64,000 nt of DNA from Candidatus Versatilivorator sp. (lineage in GTDB: Bacteria; Acidobacteriota; Terriglobia; Versatilivoradales; Versatilivoraceae): positions 1,728,001 through 1,792,000 of the forward strand of contig OZ242296.1 of the NCBI GenBank assembly GCA_965207735.1. The letters run 5' to 3'. The translations under genes were made by a program, and so were the position numbers. Below are positions 18,138-59,312 of this stretch, piece after piece. The first letter of the stretch is position 1, and each line of letters starts with the position of its first letter. The notes under the pieces were generated by a model that made no database searches, was not told where the DNA came from, and was given only the letters and a program-made list of their open reading frames with translations.

Positions 18138-18822
18138 TCCTGCGACAAGTCCCCCCCTGTCGGGCGGAACATTCAGAGAATAACCGACTGATCGTCAGTT
18201 ATAGGCGAACCACGAATAGGCACGAAGACCGATGGACCTCCTTCAACCACAAGGTGTCACGACGTCAGGGGAGAAAGCCCCCCGGGAGCGCGGGCGTCCC
18301 GCCCGCCCCAAAGCCTCTCGCAGTCTCGGCCCTCTCCTTCACCCGGGTCGACCGGCTGCAGCATCGCAGGGAAACTGAGCGGCAACCCAAGGGACAGGAC
18401 TAGAGGCCGCTGCACGAAACGCTGACTCAGGCGGGTGCGACTTGATGAAAAATGGGAGTTCACCACAAAAAGCACAAAAGTCACAAAACGAATTTCTTGA
18501 TTTTCGAGTCCTCACGATCCGAAGTTGATCCCCATGGCGTCGCGTTGACCGGATGTAGGCAGATAGCGCGGAACTTGTGCGACATGTTCGGGAGTCAACT
18601 CCTTGCAGGCTTTCAGTGTTCTGCTCTTTTTGTGTTTTTTGTGCCTTTTGTGGCCATTCCCGGCAATGGTCCCGCTGCTGAATATTGCAAAAGGCTCGAG
18701 AGTGAAACAATCAGTAATCGACCATCCCTTCGCGACCTTGGTATCCCGTCGCGGTGAACCTCAGCGCCTTAGTGGCTCTTCGTCGTTCTTCGTGGCCCTT
18801 CGTGGATAAGTCTTTTTCTTTT

Positions 18823-19357
18823 GAGCCATTTGCAAAATTCTTCGGTAAGCGGAATTGATTACCGGGAAGGGTTGTGATCCCCGGGAGGTCGCGTCTGCCC
18901 TCCTCTGGATCGACGGCGGGCGGAGCACTCTCGGGACGCCGCGTTGGCCCCCCTCCGGATCAGCCTTCGCCATTCGGCTCGGCTTCTCCGACTCCCCCTC
19001 AAGGGGGGAGTGATACTTGAGCGCTGAACCAGGCTCCTTGCCTGATTCCGGGGCATGATGTAAATGATGTTCTCGGTTTAGGGTGTCGAGGATGCCCCCC
19101 CGGGAGCGCGGGCGTCCCGCCCGCACCATGTCGGGCACAGCCTTGGCCATCTCCGCCACTCGGATCGACCCGGAACTGCGCCCTGGGTCTGCTTCGGTTT
19201 GACCGTTGAGGTTGCCGCCGACAGGCCGGCACCCTTCAGCACCGGACGAAGGCTCAGCGCCAGCCAAAGGAATGGGGCATAAGGATGCAGGCGGGACGCC
19301 CGCGCTCCCGGGGGGCTTTTGGGCGGCCCGTGCAGATCCGAATTTTGCAAAGGGCTC
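18823..19357. mobile_element. MITE carrying the TIRs of the neighbouring IS
   Basis: GAGCCATTTGCAAAATTC ... GAATTTTGCAAAGGGCTC with TTTT on both flanks; no transposase. Confidence 0.85.
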
Positions 19358-19512
19358 TTTTGTCTCTTGTCGTTTGTTTCAGACAAGCCGGCCCCCGCCC
19401 TGCCGTGCGGATCATTCGAGAGTGAAACAATCAGAAATCGACAATCCTTTCGCGAACTTGGTATCCCGTCGCGGTTAACCTCAGCGCCTTAGTGGCCCTT
19501 CGTCGTTCTTCG

Positions 19513-21506
19513 GTAGAGTCGAGGGGAGGCGCGCCGGCCTTAGATCGAGGGAGTCGCTGTTGCCGGCGGCTTTCGCCACTCGCCGGTGCCTCAATCTCGT
19601 TCCTCGCTGCGTTTCCTCGCCCCCGCTCGTCAAACCGGACGTGCGGTTTTCCCGCATCCGGCTTTCAGTCAAGATCATGCCTTCGCCCTCGGAAGGCTCT
19701 GTGGCTTCGACCCCAGGCAAGTGAGTCCATAGGTTTTCCATAGTCTCTCGTCCGAGAAGCGCACACTCCCCCCGGTCCTCACCTTGTGCTTCCGACAGAG
19801 CCACTGACGCAGCCGCCCGCCCGCGTGGCGGTCGATCGCTCGGTAGGCCGGGCTCACCTGCCCCAGAACGAAGTAGTTCGCCCACCCGGTCATCGCCCGG
19901 TTCAGGTGTTCTACCATCTGTCCTCGAAGCAGCGTCCCGTTCCTCGGCGCCGTCCACTCGCTGATCTTGCGGCAGATGCTCTGGACGCTCGCCTGGCTGG
20001 GTCGTGTGCCGATGTAGGCTCCTTTCCCTTTGGGGCGATAGTTGCGTCCGATGCGATATCCCAGAAACCCCATCGGTTCCTCCGGACACCGCAAGCATCG
20101 GGTCTTCCGCTCGTTGACCGGTAGCTTCAGCTCCTCCATGATCCGCTTGACCGCCGTCAGCATCTCTGCCGCCGGTGCCCTGCCGAGTACACGGAAGTCA
20201 TCCGCATAGTTGACGATCTCCGCACAGAAGCGCCGGGCATATCCCAGCACCTTCCAGCCCAAAACGAAGCGCCGCATGTAGAGATTGCTGAGCAACGGTG
20301 AGATCGGGGCTCCTTGCGGTGTCCCCTTCCGCTCCCGGCGCCCTCGGTTCCGGCGGCGTCTGCCACCCTTCCCGTCGTCCTCCTCCACCGGCATCTCCAG
20401 CCATGCCTTGATGAGCTTGAGCATCCTCCCGTCACTCACGCGCCGGGCAATGCTCCGAATCAGCTCCGCATGCGGAATCTCGCCGAAGTAGTTGGACAGG
20501 TCGCCGTCAACCACCTCCTGGTAACCCCTTTGCAGGAGTTCATGCACGCGTTTGACCGCGTCGTTGGCACTCCGCCCCGCCGATAGCCATATTGCTCCGG
20601 TTGCAGGTCCGCTTCGAAGATCGGCTCCAACACCAGCAAAGCCGCCGTCTGCGCTACCCGGTCCCGTATGCAGGGTATGCCCAAAGGCCGGAACTTGCCG
20701 GGCTGTTTCTTCGGGATCAGCACCTGCCGCACCGGCTTCGGTACGTAGGTTCCTTCCCTCAGATCCCGCGCCAGTTCCCCCAGCCAGCCCTCCACCCCAT
20801 ACGCCTCGATGTCCTTGAAGCCCTCCCCGTCCACCCCGGCCGACCCGCCGTTTCGGCGTACCTGTGCCCAGGCTTCCTTCAGAAAGTCCTCTCGCCACAC
20901 CTTGTCCGACAGCGCATGAAACCGCCGCTTGGGGTCCTCCTTCGCTTTCGCATGTAGCATGGTCTGGAATTTCCGAACCCCCTCTGACCCTGTTAGACTT
21001 TTGTCAGTGGCCACGCCTTGCCTCCTTTCCATGCTGCTCTCAACTCAGGGTCCCTTCCCTCCACCGGCGTTACCCGGCTTCTCCGGTACTACCGACCCAT
21101 CCGCCACCCTGACGGCCCGGCCTGCCCCTCGCGGGGTCCCGGTTGATGTGTGCCGCATCTCCCCCAGGGCTTCCCGTGTTGCTGCCTTCTTCCCCTTCCA
21201 TGCGTGCCAGCGTCACTACCCCGACGGAAGCGGATCGGTGCCCGCGTCGCTCTCTTCCCCATCCGCCAACGGCCTTCCCCTAAAGACAGGAGGGTCGGCT
21301 TCCGTATTGTCCGTTTCGAGGCCTGCTCGACGTTCACTCGCGTTCCGGCCCGCATGCTCGCTGAGCCGCCCTTGGCGGCCCTTGACGCCAGAGTGCTTCA
21401 GACCATTTCGTTACCTCCATGATCCGCCCTGGCTGCTACCAACCGGAGCGACAGTTGTTGGGCGGGGTTCGCACCCGCCAGAAGAAGGCGCCTTTCCACG
21501 GCGCAC
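19513..21506 (-). mobile_element. Group II intron (endonuclease-minus IEP)
   Basis: 5' end GTGCG at 21506. Domain V AAAGCCGGATGCGGGAAAACCGCACGTCCGGTTT (19665-19632). 3' end ...GACTCTAC at 19513. The flanks rejoin into an intact repeat unit. Confidence 0.93.
19675..21032 (-). pseudogene. ltrA: Group II intron reverse transcriptase/maturase, frameshifted near 20580
   Basis: Frame 1 carries GVDG, IPK, RPLGIPCIRDRVAQ, QYGYR. Frame 2 carries GRSANDA, DLSNYF, GTPQGAPISPLLSN, YADD, FLGY, GWANYF. About 1 nt is missing at TATCGGCGGGGCGG. Confidence 0.88.
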
Positions 21507-21536
21507 TGTCCCTTCGTGGATAAGTCTTTTTCTTAT

Positions 21537-23023
21537 GAGCCTTTTGCAAAATTCGCAGATAGCGGGAATTTTCACGTGGGGAAAGATCAAGGAGGGCAGG
21601 TGGAAGGAGGGGCAAGACCACTGTCTGTTGTATCATGAAGGTGTCTGAACCACATGATGAACGGAGGTGGAACTTGCCCCTTAGGGAAACCCTATCACGA
21701 CACTGGTTCCGGTTTCAACGAGAGCTGTTTCCCCTGCTGGAGGAAGTTTTGGGGCCTCTGGGAGAGCGTTACCAGCGGCTGGTGCAGGTATTGGAGTTGG
21801 TGCGGGTGGAGGAGTTGCTGCCTTACAGTCGGGGCTGGCGTGGCCGGCCGCTGGAGGATCGGGCAGTGCTGGCGCGAGCCTATCTGGCGAAGTCGATGCT
21901 GGAGGTGGCGACCACGCGGGGATTGGTGGAGCGGCTGAGGAGTGAGGGGAGGCTGCGGCGGCTGTGCGGCTGGGAGAGGGCGTGGGAGGTACCGAGCGAG
22001 TCGACCTTCTCGCGGGCCTTTGCGGAATTCGCTGAGAGCGACCTGCCGGGGCGTTTGCACGAGGCATTGCTGGAGGAGACGCTGAAGGGCCACTTGGCGG
22101 GGCATGTGTCGAGGGACTCGACGGCGATTGCGGGACGGGAAAAGCCAGCGGCCAAGGCTGCGCCGGAGGCCAAGCGGAAACGCCGGCGGGGCCGGCCGCC
22201 GAAGGGCGAGCGACGGCCCAAGCGGTTGAGCCGGCTGGAGCGGCAGGGGTCGATGACGCTGGAGGAAATGTTGAAGGAGTTGCCCAAGGCCTGCGACATC
22301 GGCGTCAAGCGCAACGCCAAGGGGCATCAGGAGAGCTGGACCGGCTACAAGCTACACCTCGACGCCATTGACGGCGGGATTCCGGTCAGTTGTCTGCTGA
22401 CCTCGGCCTCGGTGCATGACTCTCAGGCAGCCATTCCGCTGGCGACGCTGACGGCAAGGCGGGTCGAGAGTCTCTACGACTTGATGGACAGCGCCTACGA
22501 TGCGCCGGAGATCCGGGCCTTCAGTGAGAAGCTGGGGCATGTGCCGATTATTGACGTCAACCCCCGCCGAAGAGCTACCTTGAAAGCCGAGCGGAAGCGG
22601 GAGGCACTGGCCCGGCGCTGTATCGGCCAAGTGACTCCCGAGGCGCGGCGCTACCGGGAACGCTCGACGGTGGAGCGGGTCAACGGACGGCTCAAGGAGG
22701 AGTTTGGCGGGAGGCAGGTGAGGGTTCGCGGCCCCGACAAGGTGAGGTGCCACCTGATGTTCGGCATTCTGGCCCTGACGGTGGATCAGTTGATGCGCCT
22801 GACGCTCTGAAGACCGGGTTGCCACCCCCAACCGCACAGCAGGTTCGCCCGCCTCAAGGCCGGGAGAGGGTAAGCTGTGCCTGCGTCCGGCGACCGCTGG
22901 CCATCCGGCCATCAGATTCGGGCTTTTTCCTTCAAAAGGGTCTTTGCAGCTGGGTAGTCACCGCCGGAACATCACTGTTGCCAGCCCAATGTCATGCCCG
23001 ATTCCGAATTTTGCAAAAGGCTC
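21537..23023 (+). mobile_element. Insertion sequence (DDE, IS5/IS1182-like)
   Basis: Perfect 19-bp TIR GAGCCTTTTGCAAAATTCG; 4-bp TSD TTAT (21533-21536 and 23024-23027). Confidence 0.93.
21635..22810 (+). CDS. DDE transposase
   Basis: PSESTFSR, RDSTAI, GYKLH, SVHDSQ, MDSAYD, YRERSTVERVNGRLK. Confidence 0.93.
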   Translation: MKVSEPHDERRWNLPLRETLSRHWFRFQRELFPLLEEVLGPLGERYQRLVQVLELVRVEELLPYSRGWRGRPLEDRAVLARAYLAKSMLEVATTRGLVERLRSEGRLRRLCGWERAWEVPSESTFSRAFAEFAESDLPGRLHEALLEETLKGHLAGHVSRDSTAIAGREKPAAKAAPEAKRKRRRGRPPKGERRPKRLSRLERQGSMTLEEMLKELPKACDIGVKRNAKGHQESWTGYKLHLDAIDGGIPVSCLLTSASVHDSQAAIPLATLTARRVESLYDLMDSAYDAPEIRAFSEKLGHVPIIDVNPRRRATLKAERKREALARRCIGQVTPEARRYRERSTVERVNGRLKEEFGGRQVRVRGPDKVRCHLMFGILALTVDQLMRLTL

Positions 23024-23157
23024 TTATGTCTTTTTTCGGTTGTTTCAGGCAAGCCGGGCCCCCCGCCCTAGTGTGCGGATCATGCATAGAGTGAAACAAT
23101 CGGAAATCGACCATCCCTTCGCGAACTTGGCACCCCGTCGCGGCCAACCTCAGCGCC

Positions 23158-25380
23158 TTAGTGCCCCTTCGTCGTTCTTCGTGCCCCTTCGTGGATAAGT
23201 CTTTTTCTTTTGTCGTTTTGTCGTTTGTCGGTTGTTTCAGACAAGGCGAAAGCGACGTAGCTTCCGCCGGAGGGGGCTCCGCTCTTGCCTCCCCCGGCCG
23301 CAATCACCACGAACTGGCGCCCCGACACTTCATAGGTGGCCGGGGTTGCGTTTCCCGAGGCCGGTAGCAGAGTTTCCCACAATAGGCGTCCATCGGCCTT
23401 GTCGAAGGCCCGGAACTTGCGGTCGAAGTTGCTGGCGCCGATAAACACAAGCCCGCCCGCCGTCACAATGGGGCCGCCGTAGTTCTCCGACCCGGTCCCC
23501 ACCATTCCCCTTGCCGCCAGCTCCGGGATTTCACCCAAGGGAACCTGCCAGACGATCTCGCCCTTGTCGAGGTCGATGGCGTTGAGGATTCCCCAAGGCG
23601 GTTTCACTGCCGGGTAGCCTTCCGGATCCAGGAAGCGGTTGTAGCCGTCATGACCGTAGGGCAGGCGGTAGAGTGGCCTGCCGGCCCGGTCCGCGGGGAC
23701 CGAGGCGTCCTTGCCGTAGAGAACAAACCCCAGGATGGCCTCCAACGCGTCCTCCCCCAGGTGGGCAAAACCCGGCATGCGGCCCCCGCCCTGGCGCAGG
23801 GTCCGCCGCACCATCTCCTGCGAACGGCGTTTTCCCAGGTCCACCAGCGAGGGAAACTCCGGGGGGGCGCCGCTACGGTCCTGACGGTGGCAGCCGCTGC
23901 AGTTCCACTGGTAGAGCTGCTTGGCGGTGACGGGGCCGGCGACCGCTTCCCTCGCCACCAGCCGCAGGATCCAGGCCATCTCGCTGGAGTTGACATACAA
24001 CCGTCCCGATTCCGGATCGAAAGCTGCCCCGCCCCACTGCCCCCCTCCGTCGAAACCCGGAAAGAGAACGGTCCCCTCCAGACTGGGAGGAGTGAACTGG
24101 GGTCCGTTGCGCAGCTTGCGGAAGCGCTTCAACACCTCCCGGCGCGCTTCCGGAGTGCGGTCGGTTAACAGGTTTTCCGTCAGGTGCTGGCGGGCAAACG
24201 GAGGCGGCTTCGAAGGAAGGACCTGGGTGGCGGCCAGCCGTTCTCCCGGGACGCCGGCGACCGGAACTTTGACTTCCCTGAGCGGGAACAGCGGACGGCC
24301 GGTCACCCGGTCGAAGGTGAAGACGTGTCCGGACTTGGTGATCTGGGCCACGGCGTCAACCGGCCTGCCCTCCCTCACCACCGTCACCAGGCCGGGAGGA
24401 GCCGGCAGGTCCCTGTCCCACACGTCATGCCTGACCACTTGAAAGTGCCAGACCCGCTCGCCGGTTTCGGCCTTCAGGCAGAGCAACGAGTTGGCGAAGA
24501 GGTTGTGGCCGGAACGGTTCCCGCCGAAAAAGTCGAAAGCCGCCGAGCCGGTGGGAACGTAGACCAGGCCGCGCTGCTCGTCCAGGCTCATGCCGGCCCA
24601 GCTATTGGCCCCGCCGGCGGTTTTCCAGGCCTGCCCGGGCCAGGTTCGATGGCCCGGTTCGCCCGGACGGGGAATGGTTCGGAACCTCCAGCGGAGCTTG
24701 CCGCTGCGGGCGTCGTAGGCTCGAATGTCCCCGGGGGCGCTCGGCAGGCTCTCACCCACCGTGCTGCCGAGGATGAGCAGGTCCCGGTAGACAACCCCGG
24801 GCGTGGTCAGAGAAACGGTGATCGAATCGGGTGGCCGCCCCAGGTGGCGCCTCAGGTCGATAAATCCCCGATCCCCGAAGTCCAGGCAGGACTTGCCGGT
24901 GGCCGCGTCCAGGGCATAGAGCCGGTGCCAGTAGGAGAAGTAGATCCGTGCCTGGGCACCCCGGCTCCAGTACATCAATCCCCGAATGCGAACCCTGTCG
25001 CGGGGAGTCCCGCCCGGAATGGACGGCCGGAAAGACCAGATCTCCCTGCCGGTGGCCGCGTCAAGCGCGAAGACCCGCCCTCGGGGACTGGTGGCATACA
25101 GCCGCTCACCCACCACCAGGGGATTGCATTGCATCTCCGAGCCCGGAAAGGCATCCCCCGTATCGTAGGTCCAGGCGACCCGCAATCGGTGCAGGTTGCG
25201 GCGGTTGATCTGAGCGAGGCGGGAGTAGCGGATCTGCCGGTTGCCGCCTCCGTAGGCGCTCCACTGGTCGTGGCCCGCCCTGGGCAGTTCGCGGCCGGGT
25301 TTCCCGGTCCGTGCCAAAGGAACCCAGGCGACCGAAGCCGCAACCGCCAACAAACAGGCCAGCAGTGCACGGTTTTCCAT
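23158..25380 (-). CDS. PQQ-dependent (glucose-type) dehydrogenase with internal cytochrome c domain; C-terminus extended by repeat insertion
   Basis: Signal peptide, [54 protein letters not shown]. Confidence 0.9.
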
Positions 25381-38114: not shown

Positions 38115-38250
38115 CCGCCTGAAACAAACCCGTCGCCGGGTGGCGGGAGACCGGTTCAAAGTCACGCATGAGTAGATTGTCTATTAACATCGATGCACAG
38201 GATGCACAGGATTTTTTCTGGAAACGGCTGGCTTGTAGTCCTCGACATCC
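38115..38250 (-). repeat. Inverted right half of a type-B GRCAAG-family element
   Basis: The reverse complement matches about 58995-59125 (GCCAGCCGT..AAAAATCCTGTGCATCCTGTGCATC..CCGGTCTCC..CACCCGGCG..TTGTTTCAG). Confidence 0.8.
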
Positions 38251-40218: not shown

Positions 40219-42810
40219 ATGCTGAAACCCAACCCTCTTTACCGCCTGTCGAGGTTGACTGCCATCTTGCTGCAGGTCGTGGCGCTACAGGTATTTGCTC
40301 AGCAGACTGACAGCCAGGAAGAACAAGCTCAATCGGAACAGAAGGAGGAAGAATCCGAGCTCCTCGAAGTCATCACGGAGGAGATCGTCGTCATCGGCAG
40401 TCGCGCCAAGCCGCGCTCGGTCACGAAGTCAATGGTGCCGGTGGACGTCATTACCTCTCAGGACTTCAGCAGCCAGGGAGATGCCGACTTGAGCAACCTG
40501 CTGCGTACGCTGGCGCCGTCCTACAACGTCAACACCCAACCCATCAGCGACGCCTCCACCATCGTGCGACCGCTCAGCCTGCGAAACCTGGCCCCCGACC
40601 ACACCCTGGTGCTGGTCAACGGCAAACGGCGCCATCGCGCGGCCGTCATCCACTGGGGTGGGAACGGCCTGGCCACTGGCGCCCAAGGCCCGGACCTTTC
40701 GGTGATTCCCGCCATCGCTCTACGCCAGGTCGAGGTGCTGCGTGATGGCGCTTCCGCTCAGTACGGTTCGGATGCCATTGCGGGTGTGATGAACTTCCAA
40801 CTCAAGGACGCCCGCGAGGGTGGCGCCGTTGAGGTGCGAACCGGCGCCTACGCCGCCGGTGACGGCGAAAGCTGGAGCGTCGCCGGCAACATGGGTCTAC
40901 CTTGGGGCCAATTCGGCTTTCTGAATCTCAGCGGTGAGTTCACCACCAGCAAACCGACCGACCGCAGCCTGCAGCGGGCCGATGCCGCAGCGCTGATTTC
41001 CCGGGGAAACACCAACGTTCGCAACCCGGCCCAGATCTGGGGTTCACCCGACATCGACGACGATGTCAAGCTGTGGGCCAATTTTGGGAACGTGTTCGGA
41101 AGCACGCAGTTTTACGGTCATGCCAACTATGCCGGGAAGAAAGTTACCGGCGGCTTCTTCTTCCGCAATCCCAATACACGCGGTGGCGTGTTCAGCACCG
41201 ATGGCGGCCAGACGCTCCTCATCGGCGACCTGCTGGACGCGACCGACGGCGTGCTCGACGGCTCGGCCGGCTGCCCCGAGGTTCGCGTCGTCGACCACGT
41301 GCCGGATCCGGCGGCGCTCAAGAGAGTCTTGGAAGACCCCAACTGCTTCTCCTTCCAGGAGCGCTTTCCCGGAGGCTTCACCCCCCAATTCGGTGGCGAG
41401 ACGCTGGATGCCTCACTGGTGGGCGGCTTCCGCGGCCAGGCCGGAAACGATATCGACTGGGACGTCAGCCTCAGCGCCGGCAGCAACGAAGCCGACTTCT
41501 TCATCTTCCACACGGTGAATGCGTCGCTCGGACCCGACTCGCCCACCGATTTCGACCCCGGCAAGTACACCCAGAGGGAGCTGAACTTCAACCTCGACCT
41601 TTCCTACGCGCTGAGCCGCAAAACCAACCTGGCCGGTGGCTTCGAATGGCGCAATGAACAGTTCGAGATCGGCATCGGCCAGCTCGACTCGTTCCGAATC
41701 GGCCCCCTGGCTCCCCAGGGATTCAGCGCTACCTCCAATGGCTTTCCCGGCTTCAGCGACATTGCGGCCGGCAAATGGAATCGATCCAACTATGCCGTCT
41801 ACGGTGACCTCGAGTTCCAGGGAGACGACGATGCCTGGACTGCCGGCGGCGCGCTGCGCTTTGAGGATTTCCAGGGTTTCGGTGGAACCTTGAATGGCAA
41901 GGTCGCGGCTCGTCTCCGACTGGTAGAGGCCTTCTCCCTGCGTAGCAGTCTGAGCACCGGCTTCCGTGCTCCCACACCCGGACAGTCGAACGCGTTCAAC
42001 GTATCGACCCAATTCGATCTTGCGCTCATGGATTTGGTCAACAACGGAACCATTCCGTCAACCTCTGCAGTCGCCGGGCTGAGAGGCGGCAATCCCCTGC
42101 AACCGGAGAGGTCGCGGAATTTCGCCTTGGGCGGAATCCTGGAACGGGGACCGTTCACACTGACCGCGGACCTCTTCCGCATCGACGTGGACGATCGCCT
42201 GGCCTTGACTCAGCTTTTCAGTTTGAGGGCGGAGGAGGTTGACGACCTGGTCGCCGAAGGAGTCACCAGCGCCTCCAACCTGCAAAACTTCCGCTTTTTC
42301 ACCAACGACTTCGCAACCAGGACCGCCGGACTGGATATGATCGCGACATGGACCCCACCACGGCTGGGCGGGCGCACCGACTTCAGCTTTCTTCTGAATC
42401 ACACCGATACGAAGGTGACGGACTTCAATCCCGACACCCTCAGCCAAAGGCGGCTTCGTTCGCTGGAGGAAGAACTTCCGGAGACCCGGTACAGCTTCAC
42501 CGTCAACCACAAGGCGCGGGAGGACAAACTGCGGCTACTCGGCAGGTTCAGCTATTACAGCAGTTGGTTCGACTTCGACAACTCACACACGTCGGCAGGA
42601 AAACACCTGCTGGATCTGGAGTTGGCCTACTCCTTCAGACGGAACATCACTTTTGCAATCGGCGGCCGGAACGTCTTTAACACCTACCCGGACGAAAACC
42701 CGATAGCACTGAGCGTCGGCGAGCGGTACAGCGAGTACTCCCCCTTCGGATTCAACGGCGCCTACTACTACGCCCGTCTCAGCTATTCCTTCGGTTCCGC
42801 TTTCAGATAG
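40219..42810 (+). CDS. TonB-dependent outer-membrane receptor
   Basis: EEIVVIGSR TonB box, PDHTLVLVNGKRRH, VEVLRDGASAQYGSDAIAGVMNF, STGFRAP, YYARLSYSF. Confidence 0.95.
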   Translation: MLKPNPLYRLSRLTAILLQVVALQVFAQQTDSQEEQAQSEQKEEESELLEVITEEIVVIGSRAKPRSVTKSMVPVDVITSQDFSSQGDADLSNLLRTLAPSYNVNTQPISDASTIVRPLSLRNLAPDHTLVLVNGKRRHRAAVIHWGGNGLATGAQGPDLSVIPAIALRQVEVLRDGASAQYGSDAIAGVMNFQLKDAREGGAVEVRTGAYAAGDGESWSVAGNMGLPWGQFGFLNLSGEFTTSKPTDRSLQRADAAALISRGNTNVRNPAQIWGSPDIDDDVKLWANFGNVFGSTQFYGHANYAGKKVTGGFFFRNPNTRGGVFSTDGGQTLLIGDLLDATDGVLDGSAGCPEVRVVDHVPDPAALKRVLEDPNCFSFQERFPGGFTPQFGGETLDASLVGGFRGQAGNDIDWDVSLSAGSNEADFFIFHTVNASLGPDSPTDFDPGKYTQRELNFNLDLSYALSRKTNLAGGFEWRNEQFEIGIGQLDSFRIGPLAPQGFSATSNGFPGFSDIAAGKWNRSNYAVYGDLEFQGDDDAWTAGGALRFEDFQGFGGTLNGKVAARLRLVEAFSLRSSLSTGFRAPTPGQSNAFNVSTQFDLALMDLVNNGTIPSTSAVAGLRGGNPLQPERSRNFALGGILERGPFTLTADLFRIDVDDRLALTQLFSLRAEEVDDLVAEGVTSASNLQNFRFFTNDFATRTAGLDMIATWTPPRLGGRTDFSFLLNHTDTKVTDFNPDTLSQRRLRSLEEELPETRYSFTVNHKAREDKLRLLGRFSYYSSWFDFDNSHTSAGKHLLDLELAYSFRRNITFAIGGRNVFNTYPDENPIALSVGERYSEYSPFGFNGAYYYARLSYSFGSAFR

Positions 42811-42992
42811 TCGTCCCCCCGCCCTGCCGGGCGGATCATCCGAGAGTGAAACAACCAGAAATCGACCATCCCTTCGCGACCTTGGTACCCCGTCGCGGTC
42901 AACCTCAGCGCCTTCGTGCCCCTTCGTCGTTCTTCGTGCCCCTTCGTGGAAATGTCTTTTTCTTTTGTCTTTTTTCGGTTGTTTCAGGCAAG
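42806..42992 (+). repeat. Single type-A GRCAAG-family element
   Basis: Left core degenerate (GATAG, the TonB stop); right end GGTTGTTTCAGGCAAG; interior matches 23048-23245. Confidence 0.85.
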
Positions 42993-48359: not shown

Positions 48360-48935
48360 GGCAAGCCGGGCCCCCGCCGTGCCAGGCGGATCATTCAGAG
48401 GAGAAACAGCCAGCTGTTTGCGTTTTGGAAAGAGACAGGATTAATAGGACCAGAGGCCGCTGCACGGGACGCTGACTGGGAATCGGGGCGTTGGGCACGG
48501 CCAAGGCCCGCCACGGGGAAGATCAATCGAGAAGGACTAAGAATTGAACATGGATGCACAGGATGCACAGGATGCACAGGACGAGAGCTTCCTGCACCAG
48601 AAGCCAACTCGGGCGATGATCCGGTGCGGATTTGCAGATTCCCGGCAGTAGAAGCCAGCCGTTTCCTGAAGAATCCTGTGAATCCTGTGCATCGATGTTA
48701 ATGATCTCCTTAAATCACGATGGGGTCGGAAGCCCCCCACTGGCTCCGCCGCGGTCCTTGTTGCTTCTTCGCGGACAAATCCTCTTTGTCCCTTGTGTCC
48801 TTCGTTGACCCCCTTGCCGACCTTCGCCCCATCCCTCTTGAGCCTTCTCCAGCGCCTTGGTGGACCTTCGTCGTCCTTCGTGTGTCTTCGTGGATTCCTC
48901 TTTTTCTTTTTTCTTTTTCGGTTGTTTCAGACAAG
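48360..48935 (+). repeat. Single type-B GRCAAG-family element
   Basis: CTCA-GGCAAG-CC on the left and GGTTGTTTCA-GACAAG-CC on the right; the first ~340 bp closely match 58735-59060. Confidence 0.85.
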
Positions 48936-58552: not shown

Positions 58553-59312
58553 GACAAGTGTCGCCCCCGCTCTGTCGTGCGGATCATAAGAGAGTGAAAC
58601 TATCAGAAATCGACCAATCCCTTCGCGACCTTGGTATCCCGTTACGGTTCACCTCAACGCCTTAGTGGCCCTTCGTCGTTCTTCGTGCCCCTTCGTGGAA
58701 AAGTCTTTTTCTTTGTCTTTTGTCGGTTGTTTCAGGCAAGCCCGGCCCCCGCCGTGCCAGGCGGATCATTCAGAGGAGAAACAGCCAGCTGTTTGCGTTT
58801 TGGAAAGAAATAGGACCAGAGGCCGCTGCACGGGACGCTGACTGGGAATCGGGGCGTTGGGCACGGCCAAGGCTCGCCACGGGGAAGATCAATCGAGAAG
58901 GACTAAGAATTGAACATGGATGCACAGGATGCACAGGACGAGAGCTTCCTGCACCAGAAGCCAACTCGGGCGATGATCCGGTGCGGATTTGCGGATGTCC
59001 AGGACTGCAAGCCAGCCGTCTTCAGAAAAAATCCTGTGCATCCTGTGCATCCATGTGAATAAACCAACTACCCATGCTTGACCTTGAGCCGGTCTCCAGC
59101 CACCCGGCGCCCGGGTTGTTTCAGACAAGTCCCGCCCCCGCCCTGGTGTGCGGATCATACATAGAGTGAAACAATCAGAAATCGATCAACCCTTCGCGAA
59201 CTTGGTACCCCGTCGCGGCCAACCTCAGCGCCTTAGTGTCCCTTCGTCGTTCTTCGTGCCCCTTCGTGGATAAGTCTTTTTTCTTTTGTCTTTTTCGGTT
59301 GTTTCAGACAAG
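58553..59312 (+). mobile_element. Array 2: three head-to-tail GRCAAG-core elements (types A-B-A)
   Basis: Cores at 58553, 58735, 59124 and 59307; internal junctions read GTTTCAG...GAAAC. Confidence 0.82.

Follow-up and report, generated by a model that had tools for sequence, protein, structure and literature searches.

A recently multiplied group II intron without an endonuclease domain, found mostly in a cassette-end repeat of Candidatus Versatilivorator

The 64,000-nucleotide stretch of DNA analysed here (the window) holds a group II intron within one copy of a dispersed non-coding repeat, and the question raised by this locus is whether the intron selects the repeat as its target or came to lie there in some other way. 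We examined the complete 5.26-Mb contig containing the window (genome G000), in which 45 related intron elements were found, together with other genomes of the genus and beyond it. The reading that we favour, at a probability of about 0.8, is that a recently multiplied intron without an endonuclease (En) domain, likely of class F variety g3, occupies the cassette-end repeat at 11 of its 13 sites and likely got there by ordinary retrohoming.

Boundaries and class of the intron

The intron in the window is 1994 nt long and is read from 21506 to 19513 on the minus strand, with the 5' end GTGCGCC and the 3' end CTCTAC (Table 1). The initial annotation had placed it at 19513..21512; the intron stops at 21506, and 21507-21512 is exon sequence (IBS1). 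Excision restores the interior of the repeat, GAAGGGACA/CGAAGAACGACGAAG (here and below, a slash in a target marks the insertion point), with ends of the form GUGYG...AY and clean rejoining of the exons. Domain V with its AGC triad, domain VI and domain I motifs were present, and Rfam models matched at 21338-21480 (group-II-D1D4-4) and 19513-19666 (Intron_gpII), with RF00029 and RF02003 above the gathering score. The remaining 12 copies of this lineage, called lineage A, are each 1995 nt long with an open frame of 456 codons, and the intact ORF is 452 aa. The window copy is one base short in a run at 20575-20578, and its ORF is split by this 1-nt frameshift; the missing base may be a true frameshift or a homopolymer slip in the assembly.

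Table 1. Features in and around the intron, in window coordinates
Feature	Positions	Strand	Basis or remark
Group II intron, lineage A, GUGCG...AC	19513..21506	minus	Boundary inspection, Rfam; 12 more copies 99.6-99.9% identical
Domains V and VI	19513..19666	minus	Rfam RF00029, 40.1 bits
RT/maturase ORF of the intron (YADD), lacking an En domain, with the frameshift at 20575-20578	19675..21032	minus	Pfam, copy comparison
EBS1 UGUCUU, with possible extension by U 21282 opposite exon -7	21283..21288	minus	IBS1 covariation over 11 EBS1 types; loop position
EBS1 hairpin, stem CCCU (21294-21291)/AGGG (21281-21278), 9-nt loop	21278..21294	minus	Covariation
Predicted EBS2 region CGGACAA, in which GGA (21312-21310) has TCC at exon -12 to -14 as its partner	21307..21313	minus	Covariation; TCC-less third unit unused, 0/99
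Domain I stem ACGGAA (21305-21300)/UUCCGU (21229-21224), not EBS2	21224..21305	minus	98.6% paired, 4/6 pairs with two-sided change
EBS3 G, partner +1 C	21216..21216	minus	G/C, A/T, U/A covariation; pairing in 60/64 readable rows, some of them redundant
5' exon half of host repeat: IBS1 GGGACA (21512-21507), IBS2 TCC (21520-21518), T-16 (21522), A-rich head	21507..21536	minus	
Host repeat, 3' exon half, with the IBS3 C at 19512	19375..19512	minus	
DDE insertion sequence, 1487 bp, IS1182/IS5-like, below NCBIfam cut-offs	21537..23023	plus	43 copies in genome
Remaining host repeat head and empty tandem unit (GGGGCA) behind PQQ dehydrogenase gene	23024..23245	minus	
Empty repeat copy, GGGCCA non-pairing variant	18698..18822	minus	
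Broken C-terminal remnant of GxxExxY/PDDEXK_3 gene, adjoining the 18698..18822 repeat	18503..18616	minus	E 1.4e-4, one internal stop
Empty repeat copy, GGGGCA	42806..42992	minus	Same site without repeat in 3/5 relatives
Empty repeat copy over DUF1501 gene stop codon	59130..59312	minus	Absent there in 4/5 relatives

In the intron ORF, Pfam detected only RVT_1 and GIIM, with no endonuclease domain, in agreement with the En-minus character proposed at the outset, and an intact homologue passed TIGR04416. The closest relatives of the protein are records titled Terriglobia or Candidatus Versatilivorator. The nearest named proteins were Ni.ha.I1, recognised via its organism and its length of 440 aa, and D.a.I1, both of class F variety g3, with 46-47% identity over 95% of the length; the lack of a D/En region is as in ORF class F (g2-g5). 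Judged from these comparisons, the En-minus intron is likely nearest to class F/g3, an assignment in which the best named matches are g3 and the tree was made without class D, E, g2, g4 and g5 references. Class E was rejected because the class E fragments printed in the accessible part of the PMC7923331 supplement differ around YADD, as judged by eye. Class C of the IIC-attC type, with an upstream hairpin, an EBS1 of 3-4 bp and no EBS2, was rejected because the intron has an EBS1 of 6-7 bp and a covarying EBS2.

The 1487-bp insertion sequence at 21537-23023 sits in the A-rich head of the intron's host repeat, with TTAT duplicated. Thirteen of its 43 copies are in or beside the repeat, mostly in the A-rich head, in a count that does not factor in the AT-rich background. 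A 535-bp piece at 18823-19357 has the terminal repeats of this insertion sequence and REP-like hairpins, and no transposase.

Pairing elements and choice of target

Lineage A (EBS1 UGUCUU) comprises 13 full-length copies that are 99.6-100% identical, 12 of them with an open ORF. Such a copy number is indirect evidence that the intron splices and retrohomes. Eleven lie in the CCACGAAG repeat, 10 of these in one register, and two are inside predicted genes, so that the tabulation of flanks suggested earlier as a check gave mostly repeat and not unrelated targets. Nine canonical sites are at TCCACGAAG-NNNCA/C (6 GGGGCA, 2 GGGACA and 1 GAGACA); the others are one site in the same register in a degenerate core, one at 2 nt upstream in the core, and the two off the repeat. 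At the site orthologous to that of the window intron, the intron is absent in five relatives. Sites were counted in the genome with introns removed, which has 306 A-rich cores at 235 loci, and EBS1 was taken as 7 nt with wobble allowed. Of 5,465 sites compatible with EBS1 and EBS3, 345 were in the repeat, compared with 10 of 12 motif-matching copies (P = 6e-11), which upholds the earlier claim of homing into a multicopy non-coding repeat.

The hexamer UGUCUU at 21288-21283 does pair, as first described, with all bases of GGGACA, with two U-G wobbles, and it pairs fully with GGGGCA, the commonest variant (128/306 cores), with three. Six of the nine canonical insertions are at this three-wobble variant, consistent with the proposed tolerance of wobbles, and no wobble penalty was detectable (6/128 for GGGGCA vs 3/42 for the others, p = 0.69). 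Within the repeat, 9/180 pairing variants and 0/126 non-pairing variants were occupied (p = 0.012). In RmInt1, wobbles at EBS2 and EBS3 are poorly tolerated according to the accessible part of PMC4075523, which counts against a tolerance of three wobbles in EBS1.

UGUCUU was placed in a loop by either register of the hairpin, as had been proposed, but the stem is CCCU/AGGG and not CUCC/GGGG: the former register was 94% paired with two pairs showing two-sided change (12 sequences), and the latter 79% paired with none. Folding domain I by itself for minimum free energy gave no useful signal (z = +1.5). When 11 EBS1 types were compared with their own targets, 3.6 of 4 variable positions paired, against 2.0 in shuffles (0/20,000 as high), a test that overstates EBS1 covariation because the types are mutually related. 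The claim that EBS1-IBS1 pairing sets the target is in line with the covariation of EBS1 with its targets and is incomplete, EBS1 alone being insufficient for specificity. It leaves the 5,465 sites, 6% of them in the repeat, and specificity requires EBS2 and, in all likelihood, contacts of the protein at -14 to -16.

Exon recognition is of the IIB type, with covariation of EBS1-IBS1, EBS2-IBS2 and EBS3-IBS3. EBS2 lies directly 3' of CCUCGAAA; it reads GGA against TCC in copies at the repeat, GGG against CCC in those at IS ends, and GGU against ACC in a single copy from genome G008. EBS2 is short in lineage A, where just three bases are paired in register and a C-A mismatch is found at -15. UACGGA (21306-21301) was tried as EBS2 and rejected, being one arm of the covarying domain I stem. 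The third repeat unit, which has the same IBS1 without the upstream TCC, was unoccupied at all 99 copies (p = 0.029). The EBS3 bases G, A and U are matched by +1 C, T and A, respectively; in G009 and G011 some mismatches were seen.

Addition of TCC to the motif left 296 sites, 58% of them in the repeat, and further addition of T-16 left 194, 77% in the repeat. After EBS1, EBS3 and TCC, a residual enrichment in the repeat was observed (9/9 vs 58%, P = 0.008), which fell to P = 0.09 when T-16 was added. The narrowing motifs were picked post hoc from occupied sites and therefore speak of sufficiency only; they fail to cover the shifted copy and the two copies off the repeat.

The repeat, its cassettes and the spread of the intron

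Two features had been missed in the initial annotation, namely the match of the repeat core to a cassette end and the existence of two sister lineages on other multicopy elements. The core matches the inverted end-repeat of GxxExxY cassettes, which are intact in relatives and broken in G000. Among the other genomes in the genus, 12 of 13 have the core pattern, with 21-211 matches, and none of the 47 more distant relatives searched has it; GxxExxY (TIGR04256) matches were present in all 14 genus genomes, G000 having fragments only and no intact gene. Twenty-six GxxExxY loci were parsed, and 4 of 30 were left unparsed. All 10 genes of the ELGPGFLESIYQE-like subtype had the core upstream and/or inverted downstream, with the core on both sides in four by the strict motif and in more by BLAST. 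A second subtype had AACCACGAAT on both sides at 9/9 loci, and the other subtypes (ELGSG/ELGNG) had neither end-repeat, the core being present at 0/7. At G000:C1:2238540-2240240, about 40 nt of a GxxExxY gene lie between opposed tandem arrays with 23 exact cores, and the same site in relatives holds an intact cassette, in either orientation (L141, L147).

The usual repeat unit is a 183-bp composite of a cassette end and a module bounded by CTTGYCTGAAACAA, and the module carries other cargo in relatives. A REP or REPIN, a short palindrome beside a RAYT transposase, was considered as an identity for the target; the core is a direct repeat with a 10-nt period located around GxxExxY genes, and one partial Y1_Tnp match was seen in the genome. 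Orthologous gene ends differ in whether they carry the repeat, in keeping with the suggestion that it is mobile, and no clean target duplication could be defined. A same-strand stop codon was found within 80 nt upstream of 83/306 cores, compared with 9/306 in the control. The idea that the repeat always overlaps a stop codon was rejected, as this is true of only 7/147 start motifs.

Several observations concern the repeat and its neighbours. At 23158-23245 the repeat takes the place of the stop codon that ends the PQQ dehydrogenase gene in G013, and the frame is lengthened by about 27 codons. An inversion breakpoint in G000 (C1:2142685 and 2207045, compared with L138) coincides with a cassette end-repeat. 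Tandem repeats of CACAGGATG with inverted partners occur at 38186-38212, 48547-48702 and 58913-59060, and this motif also flanks another GxxExxY subtype in relatives (L124, L125, L128).

In the mechanism that we propose, a spliced RNA-protein particle would reverse-splice into single-stranded DNA at the replication fork, mostly on the lagging-strand template, with the nascent strand serving as primer. EBS1 UGUCUU(U) would read positions -1 to -7 and accommodate purine variants of the repeat through U-G wobbles; EBS2 GGA would read TCC at -12 to -14, and the EBS3 G would read the +1 C. The protein would likely read T-16/A-15, a TA common to the IS-end targets of the sister lineage, and with these contacts combined the repeat would account for 58-77% of all compatible sites. 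Each insertion would be independent, without riding on a moving repeat. Many repeats lie just behind co-oriented genes, where read-through may supply transcription and no gene would be broken.

Replichores were defined by dnaA at 3.54 Mb and a skew switch near 0.78 Mb. In the family as a whole, 37 of the 45 copies were co-directional with replication, and in lineage A 10 of the 13, compared with 72/171 (42%) compatible sites (P = 0.012). Using local skew instead of the dnaA replichores, the counts were 34/45 overall and 7/13 for lineage A, and the bias of lineage A vanished. Copies running with the fork fit the lagging-template preference described for RmInt1.

The distribution could also arise if specificity were loose and insertion wide, with copies outside intergenic repeats having been purged. 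The presence of 2/13 copies in predicted genes, the weakness of EBS2 and the intergenic position of the repeat are compatible with such a bias of survival. However, the register is fixed in 10 copies, the equally harmless third unit and the non-pairing variants are empty, and the EBS changes of relatives track repeat variants, and we regard this explanation as very unlikely.

We give slightly less credence still to a form of the hitchhiking that was initially thought possible, in which a single insertion, or a small number of them, multiplied as the repeat itself moved or as repeats underwent gene conversion with one another. The repeat is polymorphic at orthologous sites and the intron copies are almost identical, and in the sister lineage at IS ends a single haplotype is common to two MITEs that carry introns. 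Among 10 intron-bearing repeat units, however, none were identical (best pairwise 0.59-0.94), the longest shared exact flank was 24+41 nt, and an empty copy was closer for 9/10; moreover, the occupied sites comprise three IBS1 variants, a shifted position and two positions in genes. Since the host units differ and an empty unit is closer in most cases, the insertions are therefore taken to be independent. Least probable is recognition of a folded or protein-bound repeat with base pairing secondary, for which the residual enrichment after EBS1, EBS3 and TCC, the perfect palindrome used by a sister lineage and the gathering of 13/43 IS copies in the repeat could be cited, but all three EBS elements covary with their targets, the exon recognition set is of the IIB type and T-16 removes the residual.

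Sister lineages, relatives and known systems

Two sister lineages in G000 lie in other multicopy elements. Lineage B (UGUAAU) is represented by one full copy, one ORF-less copy and one 117-nt remnant that keeps both intron ends, all at ATTACA/T in a palindromic repeat, CCCAATGTA-T-TACATTGGG, with about 20 copies (sites 4589468, 1135573 and 4261108; L031). Lineage C (UGAGAA) has one full copy and 28 ORF-less copies at CCCGCATTTCTCA/CC, in the terminal repeat of a 1698-bp insertion sequence and its 243-bp MITE; the insertion sequence looks IS1380-like from its transposase and ends, not from a profile. The last 160 nt of ORF-less copies are common to all targets at 97-99% identity and are about 70% identical to full-length copies. 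Over the first 340 nt they resemble, at 95-98%, whichever lineage shares their target, and the switch falls around nt 400 in three copies and around nt 335 in another. The simplest reading would be that domain I was recombined onto a shared non-autonomous body. The shared ORF-less 3' body was also seen with domain I of varied target lineages (for example, G000 55668- and 1135573-; L025, L038, L048).

The repeat site carries the intron in 7 of the 13 other genus genomes (G002, G003, G004, G005, G008, G012 and G013; 14 copies), a count that leaves out a pattern match in G007 with a different target. EBS1 was readable in 10 of these copies, as UGUCUU, UGUUUU, UGACUU, UGUGUU or UGUGUA; pairing is complete in six of them, and a single mismatch is present in the other four. 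Retuned forms were UGUGUU and UGUGUA at GACACA, and UGUUUU at GGAACA. EBS1 suits the commonest repeat variant in 4/6 genomes (G000, 136/200; G004, 40/80; G008, 20/43; G012, 92/109). In G002 it fits the second variant, the commonest being GGGCCA (100/211), and in G005 it has a mismatch to the commonest (134/184). G009, with GGGCCA at 135/165, has no intron copy in the repeat. The G008 copy with EBS2 GGU (L047) is in the end-repeat of the second GxxExxY subtype; at this locus the end-repeat overlaps the GxxExxY gene start codon. An extra lineage with EBS1 UGAAUU and EBS2 GGAU was observed at AGTTATTCCAGTAATTCA/A (L008, L027, L028; G007, G012).

Close relatives of the intron-encoded protein outside the genus have other targets, and those in other families lie mostly at TA(G/A)CCC IS-like ends, which suggests, on trees that are weak and mosaic, that such ends are the older target. 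The family would likely have begun on IS1380-type ends, which its relatives in other families target, and its shift to cassette ends would have come about through altered EBS sequences. A search for the junction pattern in 400 other genomes of the phylum gave one match, which was not an intron, and one of 80 metagenome loci fetched (from at least 119 matches) was the intron described here.

A bolder account, which we put forward tentatively and consider doubtful as a whole, would have the GxxExxY cassettes be an undescribed class of mobile element whose orphaned ends seed hundreds of sites that the intron family chases. Domain I would then be a swappable address module, exchanged by recombination between full-length and ORF-less copies, with EBS1 retuned to the variant of each host and the non-pairing GGGCCA spreading as an escape.

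In the literature within reach of our search, which left most subscription journals outside, we found no report of bacterial introns homing into GxxExxY end-repeats, REP-like repeats or dispersed non-coding repeats. IS elements that target REPs reportedly make similar use of a repeated intergenic motif, the REP-targeting elements there being insertion sequences. No paper was found for the target used here; the strategy is already known from T. elongatus introns and RmInt2, and the principle of introns parking in other multicopy elements is established.

In the accessible part of its description (Mohr, Ghanem & Lambowitz, 2010; PMC2882425), the TeI3/TeI4 family of Thermosynechococcus elongatus likewise forms one family whose groups differ in EBS and targets, with many ORF-less copies and insertion at conserved sites in other mobile elements; it has 28 copies, against 45 here. 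Unlike the targets given there, those found here include a non-coding repeat from GxxExxY cassette ends, and in place of a plain ORF deletion the ORF-less body is about 70% like the full-length 3' end, with a domain I that follows the target. RmInt1 and RmInt2 of Sinorhizobium meliloti are, in the available portions of PMC4615759 and PMC4075523, also En-minus and IIB-type, home into multicopy elements and show a lagging-template bias; they differ in being of class D, not F, and in targeting insertion sequences with a transposase. According to the same sources, RmInt2 uses ISRm17 inverted repeats, with a tolerated EBS2 mismatch and a longer IBS1-IBS2 linker. Lineage C is its direct analogue, whereas lineage A uses orphaned cassette ends. 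Ni.ha.I1 and D.a.I1 of class F g3 share the domain I, V and VI signatures and the lack of an En domain, but the accessible parts of PMC3552965 and PMC4244168 report no repeat targeting for them, and the present clade is a long branch away. The class C IIC-attC and terminator introns, as described in the available sections of PMC4424553 and PMC7923331, similarly find a safe multicopy site in a repeated intergenic motif, but use a hairpin and a short EBS1 with no EBS2, in contrast to the three covarying EBS pairings observed here.

The family thus offers a natural retargeting experiment in complete genomes, with at least 11 EBS1 types, several multicopy targets and hundreds of empty control sites, and it provides testable pairing rules for the little-studied class F introns, including the number of U-G wobbles that an RNA-DNA EBS1 helix tolerates. 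The GxxExxY cassettes with their periodic end-repeats are a widespread, unstudied family to which this analysis points as a source of dispersed repeats. Where introns stand head to tail in tandem (L040; L243-L253), the EBS3 base, U or C, can pair with the G that opens the following intron, as is reported for RmInt2.
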